Below, piece after piece: positions 17,703 through 62,420 of a stretch of 64,000 bases of DNA. The notes beneath the pieces were generated by a model, which did not search any database, was not told the DNA's origin, and saw only the letters and a program-made list of their open reading frames with translations. Source of the DNA: Eledone cirrhosa (taxonomy: Eukaryota); assembly GCA_964016885.1 (NCBI GenBank), contig OZ024743.1, positions 303,862,001 through 303,926,000 of the forward strand. Direction: 5' to 3'. How positions within the stretch are numbered: the stretch's first letter is position 1; every line of letters begins with the position of its first letter. A program made the translations under genes and the position numbers.

Positions 17703-17735
17703 GTCTCTACACTATCCTTTGGCTCTGCCGCCCAC

Positions 17736-21622: not shown

Positions 21623-23529
21623 ATGAACGCTGCGTCCAACGATAATGGTGGTGGAGAGGCGGTAAGACTACAAAGCTCGCAGTCAACAACGTCTTCTTCA
21701 CTAGATACTATAGAGATGGAAAGACAAAATGAAAATAAAAAAACGAATTCACATCCAAACAACACAAATGACACCAAACAGCTCAATGACAACAAAAATA
21801 ACAGCAAAACCAATAATGATGATAAAAGCAACAATGATAACAACAACAAAGAAAAAAATAAAGACAACGCCAATAACACCAGCATCAAAGACAACAACAA
21901 CACCAAGGAAAATACGGATGATACCAACATCGGTGACAACAAGAATAACAACAACAATAACAACAATAATGACAACACCACCAATACGGATTCCACAAAG
22001 AAACCAAAAATCTCCTTTGCGGAGAAAGTTCAAAAGAAAGAACAATTGATATATCTCGACATAACAAATGCTGAACACCTGTTAAAGGACGTTAAGAGAT
22101 ATGTCACCTTCGAAAAAAATGGTGCTTTCAGCATCAATTCTCCGGTAGAAATTCGCAAGGAAACTGCTCTCAAAACGATAGTTTTTAGAACGGTTTCCAA
22201 TTCTACCCGAAAACCAGTCCAATTGTCACAGAAAGATATTGAACTGGTTTTCAAAGATTCAATGAATGATATTGCATTCATTCAAAGAAGCAAACTTTTT
22301 GGGAGTATTTCGGTACTCATGAAGGATCAATTGACGGCCCAAAATTACTCTGTGTCGCCAATTGTATCCAACCTGTACACCTTTTTCCCTACATACATGG
22401 GAAAAAGGACACAAAAGATCAGAATCACAAGTGTCACACCAAAGGTGAACATATTGTGGATATTGTGTGGCTTCATCAATTTTGATGAAGACAGAATACT
22501 GTCAGTAGGAAAGTCCCCCAGAGATGTATTCAATGGGACTAGCATTGAAGTTCTGGTGTAAATGAGCCCAGAGCGAATAGCTATGATCCCACAGCGTGTA
22601 CTCCTGGACGGACTCGCCTACATAAACCTTTCGGTTGAGGGTAGGCGGCCTTCATGTTACCATTGCTTTAGCAGGGGTCACCTGAGGGCTTCCTGTCCTA
22701 AACTAATGAACCAAAAAAAGGCTCTTCTGCCGACACCCATCAAAACAACACAACCACCAACACCACCACAACAACAACACCAACACACAAAAATAACCAC
22801 AACAAACACAGTCCCACCCAACCCCACTCCACCTAAAACCACTGCAAAATCACATACAGACACAACAGCTCCCCAAGACATACCCCTCCCCAATCACACA
22901 GACGATACAACAGATGAGGCTATCTCGCCATCACCCAGTGAAGACGAGGGAGAACCCCATCGCTCGAAAAGAAAGAAAAGACATCACAAAAACAAAAAAC
23001 CAGCAAACACTACCACAAACATACAACCACTAACACAAACAACAAAAATATCACAAACAAAACCCCCACCTCCTGAAAACAAAATACCTACAACAAAACG
23101 AAAGCACACACAAGAACTACAGACAAAAACAAACACAACACAAGAAAATTACACTTACACTTACATAAACACTGAAAACAAAACACTAATGGAGACCACA
23201 CGAACGACCCTTCGGTTTTCACCAAAGGGAAAATTTTCGCCCACTCTATAAAAAAAAACAAAAAACTGAACCTAAAACTGATTAGGGTCCCTATACAAAC
23301 TTATAGGTCCCTAAAAGAAATATTTGAGAAGGATGTGGGGAATTCCTGCGTGAAACCACTCAACCTCGTCCTTCTCAAATGCCTCCCCACCCCAGACCCC
23401 CATCCCACCAGAACCCACCCCACCAAACATCTGCGTCCCCACCCCGCCGGAAACCACCACCCATCCAGACAACCCCTCCAACACCCCCATGGAAATCGTG
23501 CGGCCTGGTCCCCAGGAGGCGAAGGGTGA
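21623..23529 (+). pseudogene. Tx1 ORF1 with Asn-rich N-terminus and CCHC knuckle; nonsense codon at 22559-22561 and later frameshifts
   Basis: FPTYMGK and SVEGRRPSCYHCFSRGHLRASC align with unit B ORF1. Confidence 0.85.
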
Positions 23530-23566
23530 GTGATCTCTTTTCCTCTTTTAACTTTTCAGCACCAAC

Positions 23567-26534
23567 ATGGCCAATATAAGAGTTGGATGTGTGAACGTAC
23601 GCGGCCTGGGGATGCCCTGGAAACAGGGCAAACTCTTAAACGACCTCAGGTCGCACAGTTTGGATGTGGTAGCCATTTGCGAGTCCAGGATCCACGGCGA
23701 GCGACAGCTGGCCCCTATCTTCGATGACTTTGAGATCCACGCATCTCTCTGTCAACCGGGGGGTGGGGGCGGAGTTGCCGTTTTGCTGCGGAAACACCTG
23801 GGCCTCGTAACACAGACGGTACATCTGGACCCGGGGGGTCGACTGGTGGTCCTAGACGTTGACGGTAGTGAAGGTGGAGCGTTCAGGCTGGTGGCCGCAT
23901 ATGCCCCTTCCGGGACACCGCGGCCAGACTTCTTCAAACGTCTAGAGACTTTTCTGGGAACGTCCCGCTCCTTGCTTTTAGTGGGGGACTGGAATGGAAT
24001 CCTAGATGCACGTTGGGACTATGTGGGAGCATGTCCCGATAAAGGGGGGTGTAACAGCCTCAAACAGTTAATCGACCGATTTGACCTGGCCGATGAACCA
24101 GTTCTTCGACGCAAAGCACGAGGGCTGCGTTGTCAGAAGCAAAATACGTGCTCTGGGAAACGAGGGAGCCAAAGCTGTTAGCTGGGCCCGAGTGACGGAG
24201 GCAAAAAGTGGCAACAAGTCCACGATTCGGTCTTTGAAGGACCAAAGCGGACGCGTGATACGTGAGCCGAAGCAGATGTGTGCGGCTTTTCAGCGGCACT
24301 TTGCTCGGCTGTTCGGGGGGAGCGGCGCGCCGGGAGAGGCTATGGATTTCGGTCCATACCTCGACGGCCTACCGCGACTCTCGGACAGCGAGGCGAAGTT
24401 CTGCGAAAAGCCGATTTCAGCCACTGAGATAGGGGACGCGCTGAGCCAATGCGGCAAACGCAAATCTCCAGGTCTCGACGGTCTACCCTACGAATTTTAC
24501 GTAGCAATGCCGGACTTATTCTCCGGTCTCCTGGAAGCGGTCTACTGCAACTGGCAACAGAACGGGAGAATTCCCAGTTCTGTAACCGGGGGCGTGGTCA
24601 CACTAATCAGGAAGGACGAGAATAAGGGGGATGACATAAGCAACTTCCGGCCCATAACTCTGCTAAACACAGAGTTACAGATTTTGGCCAAGGTGTTGGC
24701 AAAGAGGCTGGCGCTGGTCGTCGAGAACCTGGTGGGAGAAGCGCAGACATGCGCGATCCCGACCAGGTCCATACACGACAACCTCCACCTCATGCGATAC
24801 ATCATAGAGAGGGTAGGGTGTAAACCCGGCTTCGGTGGGGCCCTGATCAACTTGGATCAGTCTAAGGCTTTCGATAGGGTTGACCATCGTTACCTGGATG
24901 CGGTGCTCGAGGCGGCAGGCTTCGGATCCGTGTTCAGGGGCTGGATTGCTGCAATGCACAACAACAACATCTGCTCAAGGGTCAAGGTGAACGGTTACCT
25001 CTCGGAGCCGTTCCATATTACGCGATCCATTCGACAGGGATGCCCTCTCTCCTCCCTTCTGTACGTACTGACTCTCGAGCCACTACTGCGGAAGCTGGAG
25101 CTATTGCAGGGCATCCCTCTGGAACCGGGACTGCGGAAAGCGGCGTCGGCCTACGCCGACGACGTGACAGTAATGGTGTCGAGCGCCTCGCAAATCGAGA
25201 AAGTCGGCACCTTACTAAAGGAATACGAAAGTCTCACAGGAGCGAAGCTGAACCGGGACAAGTCCATCGGTTTGCAACTCGGATCGTGGAGATGCAGACC
25301 GATGCCTTCCGATGGCGTCGTCGGACGCTGGACGGAAGGACCGGTAAAGCTGCTCGGGGTCTGGTTTGGTCCGGATCTCCAGGTGGAGAAGAACTGGAAC
25401 GAAGTGACGGCCAAGGTGTTTGCACTCACCCAGAAGTGGGCCGAGTGCAAACTATCCTTGAAAGGTCGAGCGGAGGTGGCGAACACTTTTATAGCGTCCG
25501 ACATCTACTACCGCTTGACCGTCGTGCCTTGTCCAGCCAAAACGCTCGCCAAAATGGAGCGCGCCCTCTTCCGATTCCTTTGGAAGAGGCGGGCTCCTTT
25601 GGTAAGAAGATCCATCTGCTGCCAACACCCTTCTAACGGAGGGCTGGGGATGCCGTGGTTGACGATGCGCAAACACGCGCTCAGGCTGCGGCATCTCTAC
25701 GTATTCCTCACCGGACAACCGGTGTGGGCCCCGTTCGTGAGGCGAACCTTCCCACGACTCGTCTCACTGGCCGAGCTGCAGTCCTGGGTCAAGCAGAGAC
25801 CGAGGAAAATGGGCGACTGGCACATCGAATGTGCTCAGGCGCTCACAGCCCTCTGGCAGGCGGACCCGGCGATCAGTGGAGACTCCACTTCGTCATTCTA
25901 TAGAGGGTTGGTCCGCAGCAAGTGCGACAACGCGCTCGGTGAAACTCTAGGCGTGGAGGAAGATGAACTGGCCAGTCTGTTCGGTAGGACCTTCCGCCCG
26001 GGACCGATGGACAACTTCCAAAAGTCCCTGGCCTGGCAGTGCTACCGAGGAGCTCTACCAGTTCGAGACAAGCTCTACAGACATGAGCGCCCGGGCAGGG
26101 ACCCTGCAAAAAAGATCTGTCCGAGGTGCGTGCGAGACGAAGAAACCGTCGCGCACGCATTCATACACTGCCCGGGCGTCACTGACCTGTGGGGATATGT
26201 AGAACGACTATTGTCGCGGGTGGGACCAATCCAGTTGACCACCGAGTCCATTGTCATGATCAAACCGCCACCCTCCTTCAAAAACGAAGGAGAGGCGGTT
26301 TTCCTTTGTGTGATAGCTATGGCGAAAGAGGTTGTATGGTGGACAAGGTTGAAAGGGCTGAGGTCAGACACCTTTCTCTCCGGCCAACAACTGATTCTTT
26401 TTTTCAAATACCACTTTGGAAGAAGAATCAGGATGGAGAGAGAGGTGCTGTACCGCAGCAAGTTTTATGAAAGGTGGGTGAAAGTGGCGAGAATGGCCCG
26501 AGTGAATTGGCCTTCTCTCTATATCAGCCTGTAG
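23567..26534 (+). pseudogene. Tx1 ORF2: APE part broken by a deletion/frameshift, RT and CCHC part open (817 aa)
   Basis: VNVRGL, GDWN; RT motifs DQSKAFD, RQGCPLS, YADD; CPRCVRDEETVAHAFIHC. Confidence 0.93.
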
Positions 26535-27154
26535 ATTGAGGAAAAGGAGGAGGAGAGGAAAGGAGTACAAGCTCTTCGTACTCCTGGAGATGAGGGTTGC
26601 ACATTTTTTCGGGGGTATGTGTTACCCATATAAACTGTCTCCCTCTATTGGGGAAAATCGACTAACTTTTAAATTCCATCTGTGATAACATTTTACACGT
26701 TTTTATTGTATGTAAACTTCCCCCTTTGTATTTGTCCCCTTCTTTTGTGCCCCTGTGGCTAATAAAGAAATATATCTATCTATCTCTCTCTTTGAAACTT
26801 CGTTACTCTCTCTCTGTCTCTCTCTCAATCTCTGTCACTCTCTCGTTTGTCCATATAACCTTTCTTTTTTATCTGTTATTTAAAACTCCAGTTATGTAAT
26901 TGTAATTCAAAATGAATTAGAAAGTAGACTATAGTAGAAAGTAAAGAAGCTCGCATCCAGTCATAAAGGAATGCCAATAAAATCATGCTAAACACTTAAT
27001 TTTCAGGCTGTAACTAACCAGCGTTAATCTGAACGACTTAATGTATAGGACAGATGGTTATGTATTAAATGCATTGCAGCATTTATTATGGTCGACTACA
27101 AAAACATATCTACTGTAGTGATAATATTTATTCAAAGGTATTCATATCATTAAT

Positions 27155-27337
27155 TGTTTCTACTTTTGGCACAAGGCCAGCAATTATACCAGTGGTACTT
27201 TATGTTATCGACCCCATAAGGATGAAAAGCATAGTTAACCACACCTGGATTTGAACTCAGATCGCAAAGGCCCGTAACTCCATGCTGTAAAGCATGGCGT
27301 CCAACTCTCTAACGATACTGCCAATCCACTGCCCTAT
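27155..27337 (-). mobile_element. tRNA-derived SINE with TSD of about 18 bp
   Basis: Homologous to 10892-11079; TSD ggtattcatatcattaat / ggtagtcatatcattaat. Confidence 0.88.
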
Positions 27338-32581: not shown

Positions 32582-36048
<3,467 letters not shown>

Positions 36049-36049: not shown

Positions 36050-36460
36050 ATATAAAATAAAGTTAAATAAAAGTCAAATGATTAAAATTTAGCTTCGTTT
36101 ATTACTGGTATATATATTTTAGTGACAGCCATCTTTGGCTGTGACCTCTTCAGGCAGTTTGAATTAGTATGGTATAGACAAGTACATATGTTGTTTAGGT
36201 GTATAATATTGTCAATACTCTGATATGCCCAGTTCCTTGTTGGGTTGCTATTTCACTGAGGAACTGGAGTCACAAGATGGCTGTCACTGAAATATATATA
36301 GCAGTAATAAACGAAGCTAAATTTTACTCATTTGACTTTTATTTAACTTTATTTTACACTACTCCGGAGTAACCAAACCAACCTGCTCACTTCGTCGAGT
36401 GCTCCAGCCTGCATACTGAGGTTTTGGTATACAACCAACATAAACTCAAAATCTATAAAT
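36050..36460. mobile_element. Non-coding PLE pLTR-type insert with inverted arms and a split HHR
   Basis: 36053-36136 is the reverse complement of about 36273-36357; the two arms together reconstruct ACUGC-CUGAAGA-stem II-GAAA-UAUAUA-UA-GCAGU; TA flanks. Confidence 0.7.
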
Positions 36461-38359: not shown

Positions 38360-38468
<109 letters not shown>

Positions 38469-38625
38469 ATACTTTGGGAGGGTCAGGTTGCCAATAAGAA
38501 ACACACGCACCAGTAGCTTTCACTTCAATTCATTATAAATTAAAATTATAAATTTAGGAATTTAGGACTTTCCGGTTGGTTGGTTCGTTGGTTCCACAAC
38601 CAGACGATTGTTCGTATATTGTCAA

Positions 38626-40557
38626 CTTCCAGGCCTGGAACTATGACGAGCTAACGTTGTATGGGCCTCGAAAAGACCATAAAACGAGCAGTGACCCTGT
38701 CACAGGACCACCAACACTGCAAGTCTGTGGAGCTAACATTGCTAGTAATAACATACTTCCCTACTTCCTCTCCCTGATCATACGCCCCATCATTGAGATG
38801 TCCCCAGATATATGTGACAGCACGGAGGACCTCCTCAGCAGAATCAGCGAGAGTTACCGATCTAGGGACCTAACAAACTGCATTATAGGTAGTATGGATG
38901 TTGTGTCCCTATATCCATCTATTGACGTAGATTTTGCTGTGGAGAAATGCGTAGAAATCATCAGTGAGAGCAATGTTGAATTCCGTGGAATTGATACCGG
39001 TGACCTGGGACTCCTACTTAAACTTACCTATAGTAATGATTATCTAGATATATATTACCTTAGCGACCTGTGCCCTACAAGACCAGCAAGAGGCAGACCA
39101 GCTACCATTACCTCAATGGCCAAGAAAACGCACACAGATAGATGGAACGTGTGGACCAGAGCCATCTGGACCCCCGAAAACCACGATGAACTAAAGAAAA
39201 TGATTGCACATGTGGTGGGGCCAGTTTAAAATTAACCCTTAAGGAACATATGTTCAAATTTAATAGATAAACATATGCCCAAGAGGAGGGAGCAGCCATT
39301 GGTGTTAGCATTGCAGGTGGCATAGCTATCTTATTCATGGTATGGTGGGACAATAGACTTAAACTTAAACTTAAAGAACAATTAGAAGACAGCAACCCCC
39401 ATAACCCTGATAATGTACTCCCGCTATGTTGATGATATAAAGATCGTAGTAAAAACAACCCCACTAGAGAACAGTCAGGAATTAGAGAAAAACAACATGG
39501 AAAGCATCCAGCAAATAGCTAACTCCATCCACCAGAGTATTAGAGTTACTATAGACTACCCAAGCAAACACCCCAAGCATCAATTAGCTGTACTAGACAC
39601 AGAGCTCTGGTTAGATACCATTAATAACAAAAAACAAATACTCCATTCCCATTATGCCAAACCCAATACTTCCAAATATCTGATGCACCGAAACTCAGCT
39701 GTTTCGGACCATACCAAAATCAACATACTGATTGCGGATTTGGTACGGGTGATGAGAAACGTGTCCCGCATGTGCAACACCAAACAATTAGAGAGACACA
39801 TACAACACTTCATTCACCGTATGCAGTTCTCTGGTTACAATCAGAGAGATAAAATCAGAGTGTATAGAGGAGCCAGAACCAAATGAGAAAAAAAGTGGTA
39901 AATAATGATACAAATGGGACCGGCCCCTTGTATAGGAGCACATTTTGGAATAGAATAGAAAGAACTAGGAATAATGTTAATAGAATAAACTCATGGTATG
40001 ATAGCATTAAATACCAAAGTGTAATGTTCATCGATACAACCCCTATATGTGAATTAGCTTACACATTTAGAAGGACCCTAGATAAACATAAACTCAATAT
40101 TAAGATAGTAGAAAGATCAGGTACCTCCATAAAAACACTTATTAGCAATACATACCCTTTTCGAAGACCTCCCTGTATACATAAGAAATGTATAATCTGT
40201 AAACTAAGCCCCCATATTAACTGTAAAAGTAGAAATGTAGTATATAGCATAAGATGTACTGAAGGACAATCTAGAGATAAGAATATAGTGTACATAGGTG
40301 AGACAGCTCGTAGTATAGGTGAACGGATAAATGAACACTGGCGAGACCTTCAAGATAGTAAAGAATCATCTGTACTCCACCAACATGCTAAAATAGAACA
40401 TAAGGGTAAATTAGAGAACATAGAAATAAAGATAGAATCAACACACAGAACAGACGCAATGTTTAGACAAATCACAGAGGCAATAAACATAAATGAACTC
40501 CAACCAAAATTAAATAGAAAACATCAGTGGAACAGCAACATCACAACTTACAATTAA
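38626..40557 (+). pseudogene. PLE RT and GIY-YIG ORF, frameshifted
   Basis: GSMDVVSLYPSI, GAAIGVSIAG, SRYVDDI, LAVLDT, CIHKKCIIC, VVYSIRC...YIGET. Confidence 0.9.
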
Positions 40558-40756
40558 GGACAAAATGAAAACACACACGCACATAGAACAAACAACCAGC
40601 CAGTAACATGTAAATAAACAAATAAATAAACAAATATAAACACTCATAGACGCCCGGATGTAACACATGCGCAAACTAAGCACACAGAACACACACACAC
40701 AAGATGGCATAAGACAGAACAAAGGACAGGCACAAAAACAAAGAAAAGAATCATCA

Positions 40757-40799
40757 GTCACTGAAGAGGTCACATATTGTGTGACGAAAGAACTTTGAC
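40757..40799 (+). ncRNA. Minimal type I hammerhead ribozyme in the PLE pLTR
   Basis: GUCA-CUGAAGA-G GUCACA UAUUG UGUGAC-GAAA-GAAC-UU-UGAC; predicted cleavage after 40795. Confidence 0.8.
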
Positions 40800-41012
40800 A
40801 ATATATGAACAATCGTCTGGTTGTGGAACCAACGAACCAACCAACCGGAAATTTATAAATTCCTAAATTTATAAATTTTATTTATAATAAATTGAAGTGT
40901 AACAACTGGTGCGTGTGTTTCTTATTGGCAACATGACCCTCCCAAAGCATAACAATATCGGTTTCAACACACGTTTTCAGATAAATAATCTTGCTAAACA
41001 AATTCAGAAACG

Positions 41013-41136
<124 letters not shown>

Positions 41137-41416: not shown

Positions 41417-41892
41417 ACAACCATATTGTTTGTTATATGTGCACATATTTAATTTCTTTTCCTGTTCAAAATAAATGACAATAAATAACCATCTCAAATA
41501 TTGCAAACTGTCATATCAAGATAAAACATTTTATGTACCGGTACGTGCTTATTACTGAAGTGCAGTATGTTTAAGAGAGAAAGTATCGTTGTTTTATGTT
41601 ATTACTACGGATGAGAAAGGAACAAAATAAATGCAATCGAAAGAGTGATTGCATACATCCGTTTCAATATAATTATCATTTTTAGAATCTGTCAAAACAA
41701 TCCTGGTACAATATCCACAATGCGAATGACACCATCCATATATTGTTACAGGTCTGTGTTATTAAAATGTTTTATGAACTAAAGAGCATATGATATGTAT
41801 GTATGTATGCATGTATGTTAATATGTGTATATGTATGTTTATATGTGTCTATTAATGTATATATGTATGTATGTATGTATGTTTGTGTGTGT

Positions 41893-41920
<28 letters not shown>

Positions 41921-41925
<5 letters not shown>

Positions 41926-42237
41926 GATAATTTAATATATCAGCTAACATAGGCGCACAGATGCACGTCCATGCCAGCAAATGCACAGGTTATGTCATAA
42001 TACCTAGGTGGTTCAATGCAGGAGGGTGCAGAACAATAATATAAAAGACGTAAGATAAGAAAATATTTTTTTTAAAAAATTTTTAAAAAATTTTTTTACT
42101 TACTTACTTAAATTTTCACTCCAACTAATTAGTTTCTGCAATGGGATAAAGACAGTTACGTAATCCAACTGTCGAGAATTCATTGCGTCATCAGGGAGTC
42201 TATTCTCAGCTGAGTCTCCAGGCAATGCGCGGACACT
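41921..42237 (-). repeat. 317-bp inverted copy of part of the 558-bp unit (reverse complement of 42424-42740), including an HHR at 42118-42199
   Basis: Base-by-base complementarity; coordinates of paired landmarks sum to 84661. Confidence 0.95.
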
Positions 42238-42461
42238 TTTTTGGGGTGTTAGTAGGCGTCAGTCATCTTACCATCCCATTCCTTCTAACTAGCCTCTGTG
42301 TCACGTGATTGATTCTTTAGAATCGGCCATTTGACTAGAAGCAGTGAGAATTTCAGTACATAGAATCCAGTCCTCGCAAGCTATTCTTTCTACTGAATTA
42401 TTATTATTTTTATATGAGCCGCCAGTGTCCGCGCATTGCCTGGAGACTCAGCTGAGAATAG

Positions 42462-42543
42462 ACTCCCTGATGACGCAATGAATTCTCGACAGTTGGATTA
42501 CGTAACTGTCTTTATCCCATTGCAGAAACTAATTAGTTGGAGT
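42462..42543 (+). ncRNA. Type I hammerhead ribozyme, unit 1
   Basis: ACUCC-CUGAUGA-C GCAAUG..GACAGUU/AACUGUC..CAUUGC A-GAAA-CUAAUUAG-UU-GGAGU; palindromic stem III; GUU site, cleavage after 42538. Confidence 0.85.
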
Positions 42544-43019
42544 GAAAATTTAAGTAAGTAAGTAAAAAAATTTTTTAAAAATTTTTTTAAAAAAATATTT
42601 TCTTATCTTACGTCTTTTATATTATTGTTCTGCACCCTCCTGCATTGAACCACCTAGGTATTATGACATAACCTGTGCATTTGCTGGCATGGACGTGCAT
42701 CTGTGCGCCTATGTTAGCTGATATATTAAATTATCTATATTTATCTCCAAATCACTGATTTGTCGAGCAAACCTGCCAAAACCACTTCTAAATTTTTTTT
42801 GGGGTGTTAGTAGGCGTCAGTCATCTTACCATCCCATTCCTTCTAACTAGCCTCTGTGTCACGTGATTGATTCTTTAGAATCGGCCATTTGACTAGAAGC
42901 AGTGAGAATTTCAGTACATAGAATCCAGTCCTCGCAAGCTATTCTTTCTACTGAATTATTATTATTTTTATATGAGCCGCCAGTGTCCGCGCATTGCCTG
43001 GAGACTCAGCTGAGAATAG

Positions 43020-43101
43020 ACTCCCTGATGACGCAATGAATTCTCGACAGTTGGATTACGTAACTGTCTTTATCCCATTGCAGAAACTAATTAGTTGGAG
43101 T
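43020..43101 (+). ncRNA. Type I hammerhead ribozyme, unit 2
   Basis: Same sequence as 42462-42543 (offset 558). Confidence 0.85.
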
Positions 43102-43577
43102 GAAAATTTAAGTAAGTAAGTAAAAAAATTTTTTAAAAATTTTTTTAAAAAAATATTTTCTTATCTTACGTCTTTTATATTATTGTTCTGCACCCTCCTG
43201 CATTGAACCACCTAGGTATTATGACATAACCTGTGCATTTGCTGGCATGGACGTGCATCTGTGCGCCTATGTTAGCTGATATATTAAATTATCTATATTT
43301 ATCTCCAAATCACTGATTTGTCGAGCAAACCTGCCAAAACCACTTCTAAATTTTTTTTGGGGTGTTAGTAGGCGTCAGTCATCTTACCATCCCATTCCTT
43401 CTAACTAGCCTCTGTGTCACGTGATTGATTCTTTAGAATCGGCCATTTGACTAGAAGCAGTGAGAATTTCAGTACATAGAATCCAGTCCTCGCAAGCTAT
43501 TCTTTCTACTGAATTATTATTATTTTTATATGAGCCGCCAGTGTCCGCGCATTGCCTGGAGACTCAGCTGAGAATAG

Positions 43578-43659
43578 ACTCCCTGATGACGCAATGAATT
43601 CTCGACAGTTGGATTACGTAACTGTCTTTATCCCATTGCAGAAACTAATTAGTTGGAGT
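43578..43659 (+). ncRNA. Type I hammerhead ribozyme, unit 3
   Basis: Same sequence as 42462-42543 (offset 1116). Confidence 0.85.
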
Positions 43660-44135
43660 GAAAATTTAAGTAAGTAAGTAAAAAAATTTTTTAAAAATTT
43701 TTTTAAAAAAATATTTTCTTATCTTACGTCTTTTATATTATTGTTCTGCACCCTCCTGCATTGAACCACCTAGGTATTATGACATAACCTGTGCATTTGC
43801 TGGCATGGACGTGCATCTGTGCGCCTATGTTAGCTGATATATTAAATTATCTATATTTATCTCCAAATCACTGATTTGTCGAGCAAACCTGCCAAAACCA
43901 CTTCTAAATTTTTTTTGGGGTGTTAGTAGGCGTCAGTCATCTTACCATCCCATTCCTTCTAACTAGCCTCTGTGTCACGTGATTGATTCTTTAGAATCGG
44001 CCATTTGACTAGAAGCAGTGAGAATTTCAGTACATAGAATCCAGTCCTCGCAAGCTATTCTTTCTACTGAATTATTATTATTTTTATATGAGCCGCCAGT
44101 GTCCGCGCATTGCCTGGAGACTCAGCTGAGAATAG

Positions 44136-44217
44136 ACTCCCTGATGACGCAATGAATTCTCGACAGTTGGATTACGTAACTGTCTTTATCCCATTGCAGA
44201 AACTAATTAGTTGGAGT
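44136..44217 (+). ncRNA. Type I hammerhead ribozyme, unit 4
   Basis: Same sequence as 42462-42543 (offset 1674). Confidence 0.85.
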
Positions 44218-44286
44218 GAAAATTTAAGTAAGTAAGTAAAAAAATTTTTTAAAAATTTTTTTAAAAAAATATTTTCTTATCTTACG

Positions 44287-44317
<31 letters not shown>

Positions 44318-45651
44318 AGTGTGGGTGTGGGTTGGTGTGTTTATATGTATGTATGCCTGTTTCTTTTTTCAATTTTTCATGAATCCGAATTTACATTTGA
44401 CAAACCGTCTTCCAGGCGGTAGTCTGAGCAAGCAATTCACTCCCGCCTCCTTGTTCAATCTTTCATCATTTGAATGTTAACATTATTTTACAGATTTTGA
44501 TGTTTACAATTATTGTTTCATTTTGTAGTGTATCCGATAAGAAACTGAGTTCGTTCTCCAGTAATCCATGTCCAGACATACATTGGTCCACATTTGTTGA
44601 TGTATAAATTGTATTAACAGGAATAAGAGATATGAAATTGAAAGTTTATTTTGGGTACTCGGTCTGCAAAGTCCTCATCTGTGGTTCTGAAATATTCTTA
44701 CCTTGTATAAGTTTTACTTTATTAACATCGGGTATGAATCGGTGCATGCTCAATGTACAACAGGTATGGTTGAAATCCATGGCCACAAACAGTAAACTAG
44801 GGCGGTTGTATTTGGTTTGGAAGCCATTATTTCTCAGTTGGCAACAATGCGGCTACCTTCGTAGTTCTGTCTTTTCCACATCCCACATTTATTTTCAGCT
44901 GACTGGTTTGTGATTCTTTTCCCCTAGATTGCATGAAGGTATATTTCGCAGTTGAATTTTATGATTTGTCGGATCTACGTGTCAGTGTTTTGGTGTGGTT
45001 TATCACCTCAAGTACTCGTGTACAATGAAGTGGTCTATTAATTTATTTTTATTTTTTTGTTCGATCATTGTCTAGGAACACCCAGAGATTGTGAGGAAGA
45101 GATTGTTGGCAGCTTGTCTTTCATGAATCTTGTCTTGTATACTGGCTATCTTAAAGCATATTATTATGTACATGTTTACGATGGTTCTTGACAACCGGAT
45201 TTCTTGCAGTCTTAATATATATTTTAGATTACATCCGCTAGCGTAGCATATGAAATATATCTTATCCACATTTACTTCGAAAATTATATTTCAATTAAAC
45301 CGAGTATTTTTACGTTCATACATCCGTCTCGTTCATTTATTGCAATAACCATTCCATCGGGGCAAATGGTCTAAGGATGGGCAAAGGAAAGGTGATAAAA
45401 GCAATCGTATGTTGTAAGCTGAACGTTCTGTCGACCATTATACAAATGGGCATCTAATTAATATATGTATCCATCATATCTGACATTCTAATGTATATAA
45501 CAATAATTTAAGTTGCCACTAAATTACAAGTATGTATGTATTCATGTATGTTCTTATGTAAGCATTTATGTATGCATGCGTGAAAGTTTTATGTGTGTAT
45601 ATATACAAACTTTCCCGGGAACTACTGCAGACATTGAACTCAATACATAAT

Positions 45652-45836
45652 TGTTTCTACTTTAGGCACAAGGCCAGCAATTATCCCAGTGTATTACTGG
45701 TGCTTTATTTTATCGACCCCGTAAGGATGAAAGGCAAAGTTAACCTCGACAAGAATTGAACTCAGACCGTAAAGGGACATAACTATGCTGGAAAGCATGG
45801 CGTCCGACCCTCTACCGATACTGCCATCCACCGCCC
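45652..45836 (-). mobile_element. tRNA-derived SINE with 17-bp TSD
   Basis: TSD tgaactcaatacataat at 45635-45651 and 45837-45853. Confidence 0.9.
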
Positions 45837-46059
45837 TGAACTCAATACATAATGTTGCTTGATCGTGTCTTCGACAAATAATCAGGCAATGTCAGCAGGC
45901 TTGACATTTTGCGATACGAAAACCAAAATCTTCATGGAGCGCATTTAATCAGCGACCATACAGTAGTGTGTATATGCTTACGCATATATTTACATGAATA
46001 CTGCAATACACGTGGAAGAGGAATATGCTCATTTAGGAGTGTCAGGCAATCTTAATGCT

Positions 46060-46802: not shown

Positions 46803-48621
46803 CAAAGGAATTGTGGTAAGGAACCAGATGCACCATAACGCACCAGAGTACTCAATATTTAGAGTAGTAGAGTGTGAAATAGGAAAAAGTCTTACCCCAA
46901 CGGCAGAGCTCAAGCCGTTTCGACGGCTACTTCTGGACTAAATTAGAATGTTTAGCCTGGTGAATATATAGCCGAACTTGTCAAGGGGGTACTTCCTTAT
47001 ATGGGAAGATTTTAGTTGTGAAGAGGATTGGTTAAAATGTGTTGTAAACACAAATAAGTCTATCATGGCACTTGGTGGGAGGTAGGGATGGCTGAACTTG
47101 CCTGTAGAACAATAGGGGAATGAGTGGAGCAGTCAAACGTTGAAAGTGATATGTATACAGCAGATTCTAAGGATAGTGGAGATACAGCAGATTCTAAGAA
47201 GTGGAGGAGGAAGGTTATAGAATAGATAAATCGAATGAGAGTAGGAAACAATGGAAGATAATAGAAATAAATAAAAAAATATATAAAATTAGATAGTAAG
47301 AAATGAATTAAAAAAATCACAATGCTATCTTACAATTACAGGTTAATAAGTTGAGAATAGAAAAGAATTGTAGAAATTGAGTAGTAACAAAACTGAGACA
47401 AAATTAAAGGGGTCGAATACATCTGCTATAAGTAGTAAGTAAAACGTATTCGGCCAATTCTATCTCAAAATTACAGGGGTGGGGGAACTGATGCTACAGA
47501 GGCCCGATGGGGTGCATCGGGGTAGGCGAAAGGGAAAAGCAGACGAGGAAGAAAATAGGGGGTGGAAGGAAGTGATAGGATGAGACAGGGGGGAGAAGAA
47601 GACAAAGAGGAAAAGAAAAGAGATACATCTACCTATGTAAGCTGGGGTTTCCCCTAACTTATTCGGCAAGTGGGGCGGGGGGTATCAGCCCTTGTCTACC
47701 CACCCGAGTCGTTATGGAGTGTGAGGGCGAGGTAAGTCCTACGCAATTTGTGTTTGCATGCGGTTACCAGTTGTCTTTCTTGTTTAGGAGTTGAACCTTC
47801 GAAAACAGCATTTGTAATGTTTCCTCCGAGGATAAGTTACACGTACGGCGTCTTCCCGTGTAAGAGTTCGCTCTGGACAGTAAGCTCCAAGTGAGATTGT
47901 AGGTTATATTATTATATTGGAGGTCCCAGATCTGGCCCGAAAATGTAGTGGCATGTGGCCGGACCGGGTTTCGGAAAGTATGTCGGTGTTTGTAGAGCCG
48001 GGTCTTGAAGACACACCCGGTTAATCCTATATAAGCTTTGATGGAGGTGTCCGCCCTCACGTTGCACTGGTATATCAGGTTACGTTCTCGGCATTTGTTG
48101 TGAAGGGGGCACATAGATCTATCAGGGCAGTTACACCTCCTGGTCGGCTCTCCACTGATGTCTAGGTTATTTCTTCCATAGGGGTTGAGTTTTTTGTTGC
48201 TTGAGGAGACGATGTTTAGTGCGAAGTTGGGTGTGGTGCTGTAGGAGAGTTTGATGGTGTTTTTGTTGATTATATTGTGGTAGCAGTGTTGTAGTGGGAA
48301 GTGTTTTTCGAGGAGTCTAAAGAAGATTTTCCCGATAGGTGTTGCCACCTCGGCATTATGGGGAGGATGGAACCACGTTACGTTGCGTGGGCGGCGGTGT
48401 CGCCTGCTGGTTCCGCTAAGGAAAGCTGGATAAAAGGATATTTCTTCCCGGAAGCCACTCCGCGTGAGGGCCTGGTTGTAATGAGGCGCGTGTTCATCGA
48501 ATATCTGCTCATTAGGTTTCCGAAGTCATATTACGCGTCGTAGGCTATTTTAATTTTCCGTACATCGATTGTGGGGGCCCCCAGGAGCAGGTAGCCCCCT
48601 TAAGCCTCTCCCTTCGTCTTA
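46800..48621 (-). mobile_element. 5'-truncated Penelope-like element (GIY-YIG with CxCx5CPLx3C linker)
   Basis: ORF 47764-48348: KLSYS, RCNCPDRSMCPLHNKC, LIYQC...YIGLT, FKTRLYKH; 3' end abuts (TA)n. Confidence 0.85.
46894..46990 (-). ncRNA. Hammerhead-like fold with degenerate core
   Basis: ACCCC-CUUGACAA-..CGGCUA...UAGCCG..-GAAA-CGGC UUGAGCUCU GCCG-UU-GGGGU. Confidence 0.55.
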
Positions 48622-49121: not shown

Positions 49122-49408
49122 AGGTGGTTTAGTTAATGTGTTTATGGTCATAAGATTCCAGTTTATCATGCTGTGATTTTTCGGCCATTTTTTGCCTGAA
49201 TCCTTTCAATGGTTAGTACTTACTTTGCGTTGCCCCTAACTTAAAACCTGAAATTTGACTGGTACACAAATTCTTGCAAAACATACCCATTTTCTCAGAC
49301 CACATAGATTTATCACATTTTTTCACAATTTATATCCGTGCTTTTTTGCTGACTTAAACGTTATTTGTCCACTATTTATCGTTCTCCCTGGTTAATTTTC
49401 TAAAAACA

Positions 49409-52400
49409 ATGCCCCCAAGAAAATAACTGTCATTGGTCGATCATCTAATAATGCAAGTAAATCTAAGTGAAGGCGTCTCACGGAAGATGCAAATGCAACT
49501 GCGATCAGGCTCTCACAGAATGCTGTGCAGACGGCAGCTGCAAGAACGGAGGAAGATGACAGTAGGCGTGAACTTCGACGGAACAAAAGTGCTGCCGCGA
49601 CTGCTGCTGCTCGCGCACGAGGGGGTGAAGGACGACGTGTCGTTCGACGTAGCAGGGACGCCTCTGCAACATTCACTGCTAGCGCACGAGATGATGAAGG
49701 ACGACGCGCTGTTCGACGAAGCAGGGACGCAGCTGCAACTTTCGCTGCTTGCACACGAGAAGATGAAGGACGACGCGCCGTTTGACGAAGCAGGGACGCC
49801 ACTGCCACGGCCGCTAAAGTTGACAGACACGACGGAGGAATCATCGAAGATTCTACGTAATATCCGCCGCTACAATTCCGCGTTTCAGATGCCATCCTTC
49901 AGAGCAAAGCTTGCCTCGTAACGTCGTTCCATGCCAACTTTCAAGGTCCAGGGGCAGATCTACCACTTGATTGATTCTATTCAGCCTCTGGCAGAAAAGG
50001 ATGCTCAATTTCTTCAGTTATACTTCGTTGGAAACTATCAGGAGCAGCTAGAGATGCGAAACTCTATTTCGTCCGAAACTAACATTGGAACCATAATAAA
50101 ACTTCAAGAAATGCTTCACGACATAAATAGCTACGTTTGCAGTTTCAAGTACGCTTTGGAATCAGCCACTGACAAAAACTTTAGTGAGGTCATACATGCT
50201 GACCGAAGGCCATCTGGAGAACACGCTGGTCGGTTCAACGCACCAACATGTAATGTGATTGCTGCGATTATGTTTGGTTAACATCACAAGAGAGATATCA
50301 TTCTAAAGCACCGATTTGCATCGTATCAATGAGATACACACTACCTATGATGTACTCCAGTATCCATTGCTATTTGTCAACGGAAAGGACGGATACCATT
50401 ACGGCATTCCTCAACATTCGGCAGGCAATGATGAGGCACATCTTAAGAAAACTGTCACCTGCATGGATTTCTACGCTTTCCGATTTGCGGTAAGGGACAA
50501 TTCATTCAAACATCTACACCGTTCTCGGGACCTTTTCCAACAATTTACTGTTGATATGGCCGTTAAAATGGAGTCCGAGAGATTATGGTTCATTAAATTA
50601 AATCAAAAAACACTTCGATCTGAATGCTACATTCATCTACGCGATGGAATTACCAACGACGTATGCCCAGACAATTTAGGGCAAGTGTGTATTTTGCCTT
50701 CAACGTTCAGAGGGGGAACCCGATACATGCACGAGAGGACTCAAGACGCCATGACCTACGTACGACACTATGGGCGCCCCAACATTTTCATAACGTTTAC
50801 ATACAATCCCAAGTGGAAGGAGATTACAAACGAACTGTTCCACAGTCAAGCGCCAACACACAGGCACGATCTCATAGCAAGAGTGTTTCGCCTGAAAGTA
50901 TCCAAATTAATGGATTTATTAAAGATAGGACAGGTTTTGGGGCCTGTCAGGTGCGACATACACGGTTGAATGGCAGAAACGAAGGCTGCCGCATACCCAT
51001 ATCTTGATTTGGTTGGTTACAAAAATCAGTTCAAACTACATCGACAAATTCATTTCTGCCGAACTAACTGATCTGTCGATTGACAAGGTGTTCTTCTCTA
51101 TAGTCACATCAAACATGGTCCATGGTCTTTGTGGACATGGACTCAATATGAAGTGCCCGTGTATACACGACAGAAAGTGTACAACACGATATCCCAGGCC
51201 GCTTTTGCAGGAAACACAAACTGGTGGTGAATGATCTCCGTTGTATAGGCGCAGGAGACCTGAAGACGGTGGGTTTACAACAAAGGTTGGTGAACGCTAA
51301 ATCGACAACAGCTGGATAGTTCCATATTTCCCCACCTTTTGAAAGCGTTCAACGCCCATATAAACGTCGAATTTTGCAACTCAGTAATATCAATTAAATA
51401 CGTTTGTAAGTACGTAAACAAGGGATCGGATGCTGCCGTCTTTGGTCTTCGTCATGAAAACAGTAGAGACGAAATATCTGACTACCAAACAGGCCGATAC
51501 ATTAGCAGCAATGAAGCCTTTTGGCGCGTTTTTGGCTTCCCACTGCACCAACGAAACCCCGTCATTAAACAACTTACCGTTCACCTTGAAAACGGTTAAC
51601 GAATGTATTTCAATGATGCAACAGCTGCTTCGCTACCGATCTCACCAAAGGAAACTACAGTCACCGCTTTTTTCAAACTTTGTCAACAAGACGACATCGC
51701 TCGAACTCTGCTGTATTCTGAAATACTGTCTTACTATACATGGAACTGGAGAAAATGGCTACGAAGGAAGGTAGGACAAGAGGTGGTTGGACATCCAGGC
51801 AACAAATTCGACAATTGCCTTGGGCGATTTTATACGGTCCACCCTACCCAACACGAATGCTTCTACCTGCGACTTCTGCTTCATGAGGTAAGAGGGCCGA
51901 CTAGCTTCACTCATCTGAGAACCGTCGATGGATACGCCTGATTGAGGCGTGGACTTTTAGAAGATGAAGCACAATGCGATGCAACAAGCGAACCAAGCTG
52001 CCATCTCACAACCATCCCGTAGTCTAAGAGCACTTTTTGCTATCCTCTTGCACGTCTTTGAATTGAGCGAGCATTACTCTTTATAGCTAGAGTTTAAAGA
52101 TGATTTCGCAGACGAATATAGGCGTCTCACACAATTGCAATCTCAAAACTTAGATGTCGGTTTTTCTGACGCTATATATAACAGAGCTCTGATCGATATT
52201 GAAGACAGAGTGGCTTCAATGGGCGGAGATGTCCTGGAGAAATTTGGGCTTCCGCAAACACTTCGAGATGTGCCATCTGACATTCCCAACAAAATTATAC
52301 GTGAAATGTCATATGATGTCGACGAACTCAAAAGGTATATTGAGAATGAACCAAAACTTCTAATGGATCAAAAACAAGCATACAACATTGTCGTTGATTC

Positions 52401-53688
52401 CATCCGAAATCGGGGAGGGGGCATATTCTTCCTGTGCGCACCTGGAGGCACGGGCAAAACATTTGTAATCAAACTTTTACTAGCTGCAGTGAGGCAACAC
52501 GGAAACATCACTTTGGCCGTGGCTTCTTCCAGCATTGCAGCAGCTTTGCTGCCTGATGGCAGGACGGCACATTCTGACTTCAGACCTCCTCTCAACGTGG
52601 CATCATATTAGATACCCACGTGCAACATCAGCAAGTCTTCCGGAATAGCGCTGGTGTCAAAGCGCTGCCTACTAATTGTTTGGGACGAATGTACAATGGC
52701 CCACAGGGCGGCTTTCGAGGCATCAGACCGGTCACTCAGAGACATCAGGGACTGTTAAGAACCAATGGGAGGTGTCACTTTCCTGTTATCTGGGGACTTC
52801 CGACAGACTCTGCCTGTAATCACAAAAGGTACGCGGGCTGATGAGGTTGGTGCATGCCTTAAGTCTTCCCCACTTTGGCGTTATGTAACACACACGAGAA
52901 CACAACTGCAAGGTGATGAGACATCAGCGGGTTTTGCTGCTGTCAATTTGTTGCTGGGAGATGGCAAAGTCCCACCCGACGGAGATGGTACAGCAGACCT
53001 CACAGGGATTTCCAGATGCGTTAAGTCAATTGCTGAGTTACAGACGTCTGTTTTTCCTAATCTGGAGGAGAACTACACAAATCAAGAGTGCTTGTGTGAA
53101 TGCGCAATATTGACTTCGAAAAACCATATAGTTGAAGCATCAATGAACAGTTCATGCTGTGCTTGCTTGGAAACATGCACGTCTACAAGTTCCTTGACTC
53201 TATGGCTGATCCGGACGAAGTTGTTAATTACCCCACATAATTCCTTAACTCCCTAGACCCTCCGGGATTGCCACCACACTTACTGCGACTTAAGAAAGGT
53301 GCCCCTGTCATGTTCCTCAGAAATTTGGAATCCCGAAGGCTTTCCAACGGCACGTGTCTGGTCATCCAAAAGGCGATGCCTCATGTTATTGAGGCAACAA
53401 TACTTATAGGATGTGGTAAGGGGGATACTGTCTTCATACCAAGGACAACCTCTCATTTCATCCGGAAAAGACATTCCTTTCACATTCAGAAGGCTGCAAT
53501 TCCCTCTCCGACTCAGTTTCGCCATGTCGATTAACAAATCACAGGGTCAGACGCTGACGTTCGTAGGGCTTTATTTAGAAGAACCGTGCTTCTACCAAGG
53601 TCAACTATATGTTGGCTGCTCTCGAGTAGGGAGCCGACATAACCTATTTGCTTTTGCAACTCTCCAGAAAACCCAAAATATAGTCTAA
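49409..53688 (+). pseudogene. Helitron RepHel (HUH endonuclease and Pif1-type SF1 helicase), many stops and frameshifts
   Basis: Rep motifs FITFTYNPKW, VEWQKRRLPHTHILIW, KYVCKYVNKG; helicase motifs [41 protein letters not shown]; N-terminal Arg/Ala repeats at 49520-49830. Confidence 0.93.
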
Positions 53689-54971: not shown

Positions 54972-55132
54972 TAGTCGGACGCCATGCTTTGACGCATAGT
55001 TACGGCCCTTGCCATTCTCAGTTCAAATCCCGCCGAGGTTAACTTAGCCTTTCATCCTTACGGGGTCGATAAAATAAAGTACCAGTAATACACTGAGTAA
55101 TTGCTGGCCTTGTGCCAAAAGTAGAAACAATT
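54972..55132 (+). mobile_element. 5'-truncated tRNA-derived SINE
   Basis: Reverse complement of the other SINE copies; B box gttcaaatcc at 55021. Confidence 0.88.
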
Positions 55133-55563
55133 ATATATTCTATATCTTCCGTTTGCTTCAGGTTAAATTTGTCAAACCAATATGGTATTTCAACCCTCGT
55201 AATTTTAGACACACAATTTACTGTGTTTATTTCTACATATATTATTATATAATGGTGGTAACTGACAATATGTTTAAACTGGTAACTCACAATATGTTTA
55301 AAGACGATGTGTATGTTTTCGGATGCACATCTATAATATATGTATGTACAAATATAATGGTCGCAAACAGATTGTTTGATATATCTAAAAATTAATATAA
55401 TAAAAATACAAGAAAACATTTCGCTCTCCATGCCTGAATACAATAAATGTAATCTGAGTTTTTCGAATGTCAATAATAACATTCAATTCGTTTGCAATTA
55501 TGCAACCCTCATTTTTAAAGTCATCCCAATGAAATGAACCCTTTATTCTTGGTCTTGTGTTGG

Positions 55564-59454: not shown

Positions 59455-62420
59455 ATGGCACTCGGTGCGCCAACCCCCCCCCCCTCCTCCATCCGCACCA
59501 GTCGTAACCTGCAGTATTGCAGCGCCACGAACAGACGGAAGAGGGGCCGGAACTGTTCGGTGTGCGGCTTCTTTCACCACTTCATCTGTGTTGGTTTGAC
59601 GTGTCGAGCTTCCAGTGCCCTCGCAGCCTGGAGATGAAGAAACTGTCTCTTCTCCTCGTCTGCCCAGCCACGGCCATCTGCCACACCACCAGATGGGACA
59701 GCGGGCTTTCCTGACGCCCAAGCCTCACTGGTTAGCATCGCTCGGCTCAGGTGGCTCCGGAAGATCCCTCTCAGGATGACAAGAGCGTCCCTGGTGCCGG
59801 TAGCCGATGCCTTCGCTTCCTCTCTTAAGAGCGCCCTGGACTCCAATCGTTCTAGCGACTGGGAGCGACGCATCTATTTCGCCCCACTCACCCTCGGTAC
59901 CCCAGGTCCCCGGGCTGGCCGGTCGAGAGCAACCTTTTTCAAGGCCAATGTTTCGTCCTTTGATCAAGCGCCCAGTCCATGCGTGCCTAGTGACGCAACA
60001 CACCCTACACTCGGATACCCCCAATCTTCCACCCATGAGGTCAGCACCAAGCGTTTGCATGACAAATTAAACATGGGTGATGTCCCGCCGCAGTCAGAGT
60101 GGTTTCCTCAGAGGATACTGTCCTCCAACCAACTGAAGAGGTCCTGGCTGCCCTGCGATTCAAAGCACTCTGAGCCATCCGCTGACCTCAGGTTCATACC
60201 CCCACCCGATCCCCACGTGCTCCTTGTGTGTTCCGACGCAGATATAAGGTCCGCCATCAAAGTCCTTCCCAGCTAGCAGCAGCGGAGGTGTGATGTTCTC
60301 CAACCAGGCATCCTCAAGGAATTGCTATCCCCCTCTCCGCTGAGGTGGGGCGCCACCTGCTGAGTGCAGTTTAAGCACTCACCAATAGGCTTGTCCATGG
60401 TGCTCTGGATGCTCACACTCGAGTCTGCTTTGTTTCGTCTAGCCTCACCGTTCTCAGGAAGAAAGAGGGTGGATTACGCTGTGGGTAATGTCTTCCAGAG
60501 GCTGGCTGCCAAGGTGGTCTGCAGGTCCATAACACCCGAAATGGGTGGGGTGTTCAGTCCGGTACAACTGGGTGTCGACGTGTTCGGTGACTGTGAGGGG
60601 GCCGCACATGCAACCAGGCAGTTCTTCACAGCTGCCCACCGGAAACGGCATCCAGAGACTCCAGGCACCTCATGGTCAAGCTTGACATGAGGAATGCCAT
60701 TAACTGCTTATGCTGGGGCCACCTGCGCGATGCCTGCCTTAGCCGACCCCCCCCCGCATCTGCCTACCCGCTGGCTTACCTGTCGTATGGAGCCCCGAGC
60801 ATGCTCCTTGTTGCTGATACGGTCATACGTTCGGCCACTTGGGTCCAACAGGTATACCCTTAGTGCCCCCTCCTGTTTGCCCTTGACATTGACCACATCG
60901 ACTGGAGTATCACGACCCCTCTGAACGTTTGGTAGCTGGATGATGCTCCGTTGGATGGGCCCGTAGAATCTGTCTGACATGACATACAATCGGTGGTTCC
61001 TGACCTGGCGAGAATCGGCCTCCAGGTCAACTCGGCCAAGTCACAGGTGGTGAATGTCACCCACGATACTGAGAGCTTTGCAGCCCCCGTCTCGGACGTG
61101 CGGGCCATTCTCCAAGAGGTACAGGTGACTCACAAAAACGATGTCCTCTTCCTCGGATCTCCGATCCACACGCCCGCCATCCTCCACCATCAGCTGCAGG
61201 CTTCAACAACTCCAGACCCTCAGCTGATCGGGCTTGATCGATGGGCACCCAGCTCTCTTTCTGTTGAGGAACTGCTTCTCCATGCCGAAGCTCCTCTATA
61301 CCCTACACCCACGCATCTCTCCTCGCCGACCTCTATTCTTTTATCCGAGCAGCAGCCAAGGAGATATGCAAGGTCAGGCTTGACGACATTGGATGGCAAC
61401 AGGCCACTTTACATGTTAGGTATGGCGGCCTTGGCCTCCGGTCCGTTATCACCGGTTTTGCCGTCGTAACTTTCGTCGGTAAACTCGTGCGGCGTCCTCG
61501 TCAGCAGGGTTCTTCTAAACACAATAGAACCCTCTGTGTTCAGAGAACGTGAGACCGCCTGTGAGACATGAGACCGGCTGGGAGTTAGGCAAGTAGACGT
61601 CCCGCCTCCTTCTCCCCCTGTTGATCTCAATTCCCCCCAAAGCACTTGGGATGCCATCCTGTGCAGCCTGGCCTCAGACAGGCTCACGCGCCAGCTTTTT
61701 TCGTGCAGCCCCCAAACCTCGCAGTGGTTCCTGGCTCCATGCCCTGCCCTCCTTCTCCACTGGCACTCAAGTAAACAATAATAGCCTGCGCATCAGCGTT
61801 TCCTTGAGGCTCGGCCTCCGGATCTGCGAGCCACACCAATATCGCTGCGGATCCACCGTGGACTCTTTCGGCTTCCATCCTTTTTCCTGTTGCCACAATA
61901 CCGGCCACCTTCTACGCCATGTTGCCCTCAACGAGGTCATAAAGCATGGCTTCGACGCTGCAGGCTTCACTTCCCAGCTCGAGCCGGCGGGGCTGGACCG
62001 AGGAGACGGCAAAAGGCCAGATGGCATGACCATATTCCCGTACCGCAATGGCGAACCCCTTGTCTTGCACCGACACTTTCTGCAGCCGCAACCTTGTGCA
62101 GGCTGCGACTAACCCAGGGTTCTGCTGCATGTCGTACTGAGGAGGCAAAACTCTTCAAATACCGGTCGCTCTCCGACAGGTTGCGGTGGTACCCTTGGCA
62201 CTGGAGACTTCTGGTGTCCTCCGCCCTAAGGCTACGTCCCTACTCACCACCATAGCCGCTGAGCTGGCCAGCGGCAGGTGTAAGCCGCGCATATTGGAGT
62301 GGCTCTTCCAGGGTTTCTCCCTTGCCCTCCTCCGGGGAAACGCCTTCTTTATTCTGTCCGCGGGGCTGTGCGGAGTCAAGCCGATTATATTACGAGTTCT
62401 GTTAAATAGTCTTAAATTGC
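59455..62420 (+). mobile_element. Degenerate CRE-like non-LTR retrotransposon (PHD-like finger, RT, CCHC, restriction-like endonuclease)
   Basis: RT motifs AVGNVFQRLAAK, PVQLGV, VKLDMRNAIN, VQQ, NVW*LDD, IGLQVNSAKS; RCGSTVDSFGFHPFSC, RHVALNEVI, GKRPDG, PLALETSG, LLRGNA. Confidence 0.82.

Follow-up and report, generated by a model that had tools for sequence, protein, structure and literature searches.

Animal non-LTR retrozymes are described as non-coding tandem units with one type I hammerhead per unit, a GC content below 50%, no LTR layout and a predicted circle that pairs with itself, in genomes that also contain PLEs (PMC7229834; 10.64898/2026.07.22.740005). The locus reported here is like them in all of these points. 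Retrozyme transcripts of coral, mussel and axolotl self-cleave and accumulate as circles, and closure was obtained in vitro with RtcB. That a PLE enzyme copies such circles into tandem cDNA is a proposed model, and the case for PLEs as the mobilising agents of animal retrozymes has been built on co-occurrence and pLTR similarity (PMC7229834; PMC4209133; 10.64898/2026.07.22.740005).

Further likenesses come from PLEs themselves. The EN+ PLEs with a CX2-5CxxC linker (Neptune/Nematis; PMC8557442) share with our locus a partial tandem flanked by an inverted copy with 5' truncation, two distinct 3' ends, a (TA)n target without discernible duplication, and a type I hammerhead with a palindromic stem III. 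In contrast to them the locus has no ORF, and its 3' ends are offset by 118 nt instead of 30-40 nt. The Chlamys non-autonomous PLEs, e.g. MRC1, are also non-coding and form multicopy head-to-tail insertions that are ascribed to PLE machinery; these elements, however, are algal, mostly without hammerheads, and match an autonomous partner at the 3' end (PMC8557442). With PAc, the Poseidon of Anolis (Frangieh 2024, PMC11167929), the locus has in common an AT-rich target, the extension of both strands and two internal initiation sites. The PAc protein cleaves and extends both strands and initiates inside the RNA; its ribozyme is dispensable, and uncut RNA is the main substrate (PMC11167929).

Compared with animal retrozymes, the locus differs in a PLE-type ribozyme with a long stem II extension, an extra A and no canonical loop 1-loop 2 layout, as well as in an inverted arm and (TA)n ends, for which the main texts were found to hold no description. 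We found no paper on the present 558-bp family or on inverted-arm/(TA)n retrozymes in the open-access literature, Repbase and Dfam not being part of this search; the supplements of Cervera 2020 and Li 2026 may hold cases. The original prediction had called the monomer long for an animal retrozyme. This is right by the size range of 150-450 bp given in Cervera 2020 (PMC7229834) but not by the 51-972 bp of Li 2026 (10.64898/2026.07.22.740005), a range that includes 558 bp. The retrozyme class, the circle-to-tandem model and a size range covering 558 nt are already published. What is new here is the presence, in the same window, of two protein-coding PLEs with the same insertion layout.

The window, i.e. 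the whole stretch of DNA that was analysed, is 64 kb long and contains no N. The element consists of the following parts:

41903..41920, no strand: left (TA)n target; the run extends 5 nt into the arm (41921-41925, the element's own TATAT)
41921..42237, minus strand: inverted, 5'-truncated arm of 317 nt, equal to unit positions 42424-42740
42237..44296, plus strand: head-to-tail array of 3.69 units with period 558, internally identical
42539..43096, plus strand: first complete cut-to-cut monomer (predicted cuts)
43097-43654 and 43655-44212, plus strand: second and third complete cut-to-cut monomers (predicted cuts)
42563..42601, plus strand: A/T homopolymer block, self-folding by prediction, once per unit
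44297..44317, no strand: right (TA)n target; 44292-44296 (TATAT) is common to element and target

In a self-comparison of the assembled sequence the array extends over 2060 nt, and its units showed no mismatch at 1502 compared positions. The approximately 3.7 head-to-tail units of period 558, in which no differences had been noticed at first sight, were thus recovered. The arm, which had also been pointed out, differs from the reverse complement of the unit at 1 of 317 positions. This sole mismatch, at 42073, lies at an A/T homopolymer boundary (T6A8 versus T7A7). Arm and array are joined head to head with one base common to both, and both outer ends run into (TA)n as had been claimed (41903-41925 and 44292-44317). 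The 3' end of the arm is located 202 nt past a ribozyme cut, beyond which the arm extends by 114 nt in the other direction, while the array ends 84 nt after its last predicted cut. The unit has 36.7% GC, and its longest stop-free stretch over the six frames of the repeated unit is 51 aa, in agreement with the non-coding character assigned to it before. An autonomous PLE with an RT and GIY-YIG ORF was accordingly discarded as identity of the unit. Neither blastn nor self-comparison detected relatives of the unit elsewhere in the 64-kb window beyond low-complexity words.

We scanned the whole window on both strands for type I hammerheads and used 20 block-shuffled windows as control. Six matches were obtained, compared to one match in total in the shuffled windows. 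Four of the cores belong to the array (42467, 43025, 43583 and 44141), one to the arm (42194, minus strand) and one to a neighbouring PLE (40761). The motifs of the element, together with a possible tertiary contact, are:

42462..42543, plus strand: hammerhead motif 1, predicted cut after 42538 at GUU
43020..43101, plus strand: hammerhead motif 2, predicted cut after 43096
43578..43659, plus strand: hammerhead motif 3, predicted cut after 43654
44136..44217, plus strand: hammerhead motif 4, predicted cut after 44212
42118..42199, minus strand: hammerhead motif 5 (arm), predicted cut after 42123
42454..42487, plus strand: possible pseudoknot, repeated in every unit (prediction only)

A complete type I hammerhead in each unit with a fifth one in the arm, the GUU site and the cut after 42538 had all been proposed earlier, and our own scan arrived at the same four plus one motifs and the same cut. 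Each motif runs through a stem I of 5 bp, CUGAUGA, an unpaired C after A9, stem II, an unpaired A, GAAA, stem III and GUU. Stem II has 6 bp, of which G10.1-C11.1 is the first, and is extended by an internal loop (7x7) that leads to a hairpin of 8 bp. A minimal hammerhead, as the original prediction had implied, is therefore not what is present: A9 and G12 are separated by 51 nt, stem II is extended over a long stretch, and two bases are unpaired. The palindromic stem III, on the other hand, was correctly recognised. Together with the closing pair it forms a perfect 10-nt palindrome, for which a duplex of -9.0 kcal/mol and, for the strand alone, no stable hairpin are predicted. A plant LTR retrozyme, which would have type III hammerheads in LTRs and a 4-bp target duplication, was rejected given the type I motif and the tandem layout.

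All four marks of PLE hammerheads according to Cervera 2014 (an extra base after A9, G10.1-C11.1, a short helix I and the palindrome) are found in the motif of the 558-bp unit. The unpaired A between C11.1 and G12 is non-canonical and lies outside these marks. A decayed, unrelated motif of the window at 36153 likewise has one extra base before GAAA. In Rfam, no hammerhead match reached the gathering level in the 64 kb, and none was among the 34 weak matches in 41800-43400, which were mostly TA-repeat hairpins beside the arm. The predicted energy of the active fold is -19.0 kcal/mol compared to -24.3 kcal/mol for the lowest-energy local fold, and in the circle the active fold is predicted to cost 2.8 kcal/mol. 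A ribozyme with such an atypical extra A may be weak. The candidate pseudoknot would pair 6 bp between 42454-42459, in the 5' flank of stem I, and 42482-42487 in the internal loop of stem II, with a probability of about 2% to arise by chance.

We then compared the unit with public sequencing runs, which may derive from another individual or species than the window. From 21 listed runs 16 contain part of the unit, and 4 contain at least half of its words. Four runs (X1, X4, X5 and X19) were aligned to one unit, 42683-43240, with small-share runs left out; repeats were skipped, so that the (TA)n junctions lie outside the view of this comparison. In X1, 1143 contigs of 80-100% identity were found, a number that is not convertible to copy number. 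They divide into 264 contigs at 99% identity or more, 328 at 95-99%, 396 at 90-95% and 155 below 90%. X19 provided 7611 reads (798, 2051, 2724 and 2038 in the same classes), X5 26 contigs and X4 3 contigs. At 126 places, of which 40 were listed, at least 5% of the family differ. The joint between the end of the unit and its start at a spacing of 558 is present in all four runs, in X19 in 364 raw reads with 54 starts, and this joint has no AATT site. Since the joint is found in four out of four runs, tandem layout and 558-bp period belong to the family, which is heterogeneous and multi-copy.

Apparent molecule ends in X19 at 42729, 42791, 42910, 42954, 42957 and 43042 were considered as RNA or insertion ends and dismissed. 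All six listed ends sit at AATT words, and we therefore interpret them as restriction ends of a RAD library.

The 40 listed family differences include 3 within the 82-nt motif and none in its core, with expectations of about 6 and 1. For this set, motif and core differences are not clearly below expectation, and none of the 40 forms a compensatory pair in the motif. A contig of X5 on 42962-43103, of which part of the sequence was compared, departs from the unit by 23 letters and 6 gaps, and a loose end of X5 in the same stretch has a differing stem II. Both point to a diverged sister family as a possible source of covariation.

The sequencing runs bear on whether the unit is an independent element at all. 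It could be just the pLTR of an autonomous PLE, such that the locus were an unusual truncated product. The PLE-type features of the ribozyme would suit this, and so would the Xenopus data of Li 2026, in which 24 out of 57 retrozyme families have a Repbase match and 21 of the 22 matched elements are PLEs. However, the end of the unit joins its own start in all four runs, contigs that continue into dissimilar sequence make up a share of 0 for X1 and X4 and of 0.03 for X5, and no frame exceeds 51 aa. We consider the pLTR explanation very improbable. The independent family, in contrast, shows every testable feature of non-LTR retrozymes, namely head-to-tail repeats of a few hundred bp, consecutive type I motifs, a non-coding and multi-copy unit and PLEs alongside, and it behaves like a non-autonomous PLE. 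Its four array motifs also fall under the rule of Li 2026 by which at least two consecutive units count as 'active'. The proposal of a candidate retrozyme is hence supported by the family-wide joint, the heterogeneity of the family and a PLE-like insertion layout. We are confident that the element is a retrozyme-type non-autonomous passenger of PLEs.

At nine places, selected because most other family copies differ there, every unit of the array carries the letter of the window, and the arm has the same letter at the six of the nine that it covers. A heterogeneous family on the one side and identical units on the other indicate that the array is one variant repeated and not a sample of the family. 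All parts of the locus thus descend from one variant. The joint specific for this locus, i.e. the inversion between arm and array, was not seen in the four runs compared, and the support for the locus itself is therefore confined to the window's own sequence. A trivial origin of the identity would be an assembly artefact, in which a single unit was written repeatedly or the units were homogenised by polishing. Perfect unit identity speaks for it, and assemblers are known to struggle with tandem and inverted PLE structures (Craig 2021, PMC8557442). Against it, the joint is present in raw reads and the window has no N, the units retain minority letters, which is the opposite of consensus polishing, and both ends have PLE-like junctions. 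We regard an artefact as extremely improbable.

Identity could also result from growth in place. A shorter PLE-type insertion of about 1.7 units plus arm would have been enlarged by unequal crossing-over or slippage, giving a newborn satellite. Such a route was proposed by Li 2026 (10.64898/2026.07.22.740005); direct repeats of a few hundred bases can grow, and identity follows if the growth was recent. The starting insertion, however, must already have contained the head-to-tail joint and crossed two cut sites. Moreover, the joint is family-wide in four out of four runs, and arm and array are as similar to each other as are the units among themselves. Local expansion is thus an improbable account, and we hold with good confidence that the locus is a single insertion event.

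Insertions of the same layout are found next to the retrozyme. The window contains:

38466-41014, plus strand: 5'-truncated ORF-bearing PLE with RT and GIY-YIG pieces, hammerhead at 40761, arm 38466-38625, both ends in (TA)n
32841-35982, minus strand: ORF-bearing PLE remnant of Neptune/Nematis type, arm 35744-35982, 33-nt tail, (TA)n at both ends
36055-36360, core 36153 on the minus strand: ORF-less head-to-head pair, the third and decayed hammerhead-bearing PLE end, one end in (TA)n

The PLE at 32841-35982 has a Pfam match to GIY-YIG and one to RVT_1, of which the RVT_1 match does not reach the curated cut-off. Its 3' region spans approximately 1.1 kb, and motif scans found no hammerhead in this PLE. 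Protein searches with two endonuclease pieces of PLEs returned 16 and 5 relatives. Both ORF-bearing PLEs carry a CX4CXXC motif ahead of the endonuclease, a type of linker that is tied to Neptune, Nematis and microsatellite targeting (Craig 2021, PMC8557442). The same source counts as PLE marks a preference for (TA)n, a tail, and tandem copies next to which an inverted copy with a shortened 5' end is found. The layout of inverted arm and (TA)n seen for the retrozyme is common to both ORF-bearing PLEs, and by blastn no sequence is shared between the unit and any PLE in the 64-kb window. The two 3' ends are offset by 118 nt in the retrozyme and by 33 and about 56 nt in the two PLE neighbours. Because its layout matches that of the two neighbouring PLEs, the locus is likely a young retrozyme insertion copied by a PLE enzyme. 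Differences between arm and body amount to 1/317 for the retrozyme, 3/240 for the PLE at 32841-35982 and 11/160 for the PLE at 38466-41014. Provided that arm and body start out identical, we infer from these counts that the retrozyme is the youngest of the three insertions.

A DNA-level rolling-circle or Helitron-type origin, prompted by a Helitron-like remnant at approximately 49400-53300, was set aside, since the scar resembles that of the PLE neighbours.

The ends in (TA)n provide information about priming. The unit contains five TA words, at +84, +187, +188, +202 and +435. Both 3' ends of the retrozyme are placed on TATAT words of the unit, at +84 and +202 from the cut, and all four testable ends, including those of the PLEs, are on short TA words of the element. 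Each retrozyme end shares 5 nt with the TA target, while a random join shares at least 5 nt in 25 of 1116 cases, which gives approximately 5e-4 for both ends; for the arm ends of the two PLEs the overlap with the target is 7 and 4 nt (0.036 and 0.046). The thresholds were set with the data in view, and the comparison covers four ends. These overlaps suggest that priming occurred by annealing to the target, unlike in PAc, which starts where target homology is absent (PMC11167929). At this one locus the microsatellite was used without visible duplication, with (TA)n on both sides.

Both pieces of the retrozyme cross predicted cut sites, the array four times and the arm once. The template was therefore a circle or an uncut multimer, never a cut linear monomer. 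The PLE at 38466-41014 behaves differently: its arm starts at 40795-40796, within one base of its own predicted ribozyme cut, as expected for a cut linear template. This is a hint, from a single case, of cleavage in vivo. The arm of the hammerhead-bearing remnant at 36055-36360, however, starts upstream of its cut, such that an arm start at the cut is found in one of two cases.

The main rival explanation differs in the template, and local expansion comes next after it. In the main rival the same PLE-driven insertion would have used an uncleaved linear multimer from a homogeneous source array, with no need for a circle and with a hammerhead that cleaves slowly or not at all. Uncut RNA is used by PAc, whose ribozyme mutants insert normally. 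Metazoan PLE hammerheads are slow in vitro, cleavage occurred in just one of nine Xenopus retrozyme dimers assayed, leaving eight uncleaved (Li 2026, 10.64898/2026.07.22.740005), and the present motif has its atypical extra A. On the other hand, an uncleaved multimer presupposes four or more identical units in its source array, so that the homogeneity question is pushed one step back. In addition, the monomer is predicted to be stable as a circle, and circles have been found for other animal retrozymes. On balance we judge the uncleaved multimer unlikely, and lean slightly towards a circular rather than an uncut linear template.

The predicted 558-nt circle has a folding z-score of -4.5, and none of 60 shuffles folded equally well. 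Without the A/T block the score was -3.0, with 0 of 30 shuffles equal. Six control stretches gave circle-fold scores between +2.4 and -1.3. The folding score is not strand-specific, because the antisense unit is also well folded (z -3.2, 0 of 20 shuffles equal).

Taken together, we favour one recent PLE-mobilised insertion into (TA)n of a member of a heterogeneous non-LTR retrozyme family, likely from a 558-nt circular RNA. The original prediction of a very recent rolling-circle reverse transcript is upheld as far as a recent single origin is concerned, given the internal identity and the heterogeneity of the family; the rolling circle is an interpretation, and an uncleaved multimer or local expansion fit as well. 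The process can be pictured as follows. The family consists of many diverged copies with the 558-bp head-to-tail joint. A tandem source locus would be transcribed, and the hammerheads would cut, either as monomers or as dimers through the palindromic stem III; a host ligase would close the monomer as for the retrozymes of coral, mussel and axolotl. A PLE protein would then nick both strands of (TA)n, and the 3' ends would prime cDNA at internal UAUAU words at +84 and +202. One cDNA would reach a length of 2060 nt and pass four cut sites, and the second would reach 317 nt and pass one. Joining of the far cDNA ends would produce the head-to-head arm and array. Overall this would be a two-ended target-primed reverse transcription in (TA)n, in which one cDNA makes 3.7 rounds of the circle. 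Circular RNA, cleavage and rolling-circle reverse transcription are, for this locus, what we infer. A transcript that enters from the left would form a duplex of 317 bp between the arm and the first unit, by which the first ribozyme would be masked.

The window is repeat-rich animal sequence that contains remnants of Tx1/L1-like elements, PLEs, Helitron-like elements and others. Labels beyond Pfam matches, such as Tx1/L1-like and Helitron-like, are ones that we presume. A GIY-YIG-like remnant lies at 47764-48525 on the minus strand; it has a CxCx4CP motif, its 3' region is rich in pyrimidines, and Pfam gives no match to it. Presumably this is another PLE clade. Three related elements in tandem, 77-85% alike, with an ORF1 zinc-knuckle and ORF2 pieces, occupy 13964-26790 on the plus strand; they are presumably Tx1/L1-like non-LTR elements and have additional copies near 4700-10500. 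On the same strand, 49400-53300 is presumably a Helitron-like Rep/helicase remnant, labelled from motifs, and 59638-62255 presumably a broken non-LTR retroelement that has a restriction-like endonuclease motif at its C terminus. The short repeats of the window may resemble octopus repeats. The window also contains a SINE-like dispersed repeat of about 190 bp with at least five copies that are 80-91% alike:

10885-11078, 12140-12297, 27151-27335, 45642-45837 and 54974-55139: SINE-like repeat copies, from self-comparison of the window

For the retrozyme a tRNA-derived SINE was rejected: ARAGORN found no genes in 41800-44400, and no tRNA family was among the 34 weak Rfam matches, although a decayed head could be missed in this way. 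A hammerhead pattern scan of metagenome contigs yielded no matches. A single pattern match in viral contigs was attributed to chance, as it had neither stem I nor stem II and no similarity beyond 13 nt. A scan for bacterial promoters and terminators was at chance level and is irrelevant here.

The family is otherwise an ordinary selfish repeat. The young locus, however, shows the scar of PLE insertion itself and lies next to two PLEs that bear the same scar. As the scar is clean, the question of a circular template becomes testable: if circles are templates, the identical units predict the outcome of a genome-wide survey. The locus is also a ready substrate for an in vitro PLE assay. In the boldest version, which we put forward tentatively and would rather doubt, the locus preserves the trace of a PLE RT that went 3.7 times round a ribozyme-made 558-nt circle, with both nicked strands primed telomerase-like at UAUAU, the neighbouring PLE serving as linear control and the motif being a new ribozyme variant of pseudoknot type. 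If true, a Watson-Crick pseudoknot would replace the loop 1-loop 2 contact in this variant, and the insertion scars of young families would reveal if circles serve as templates and if the hammerheads of PLEs cleave in vivo.
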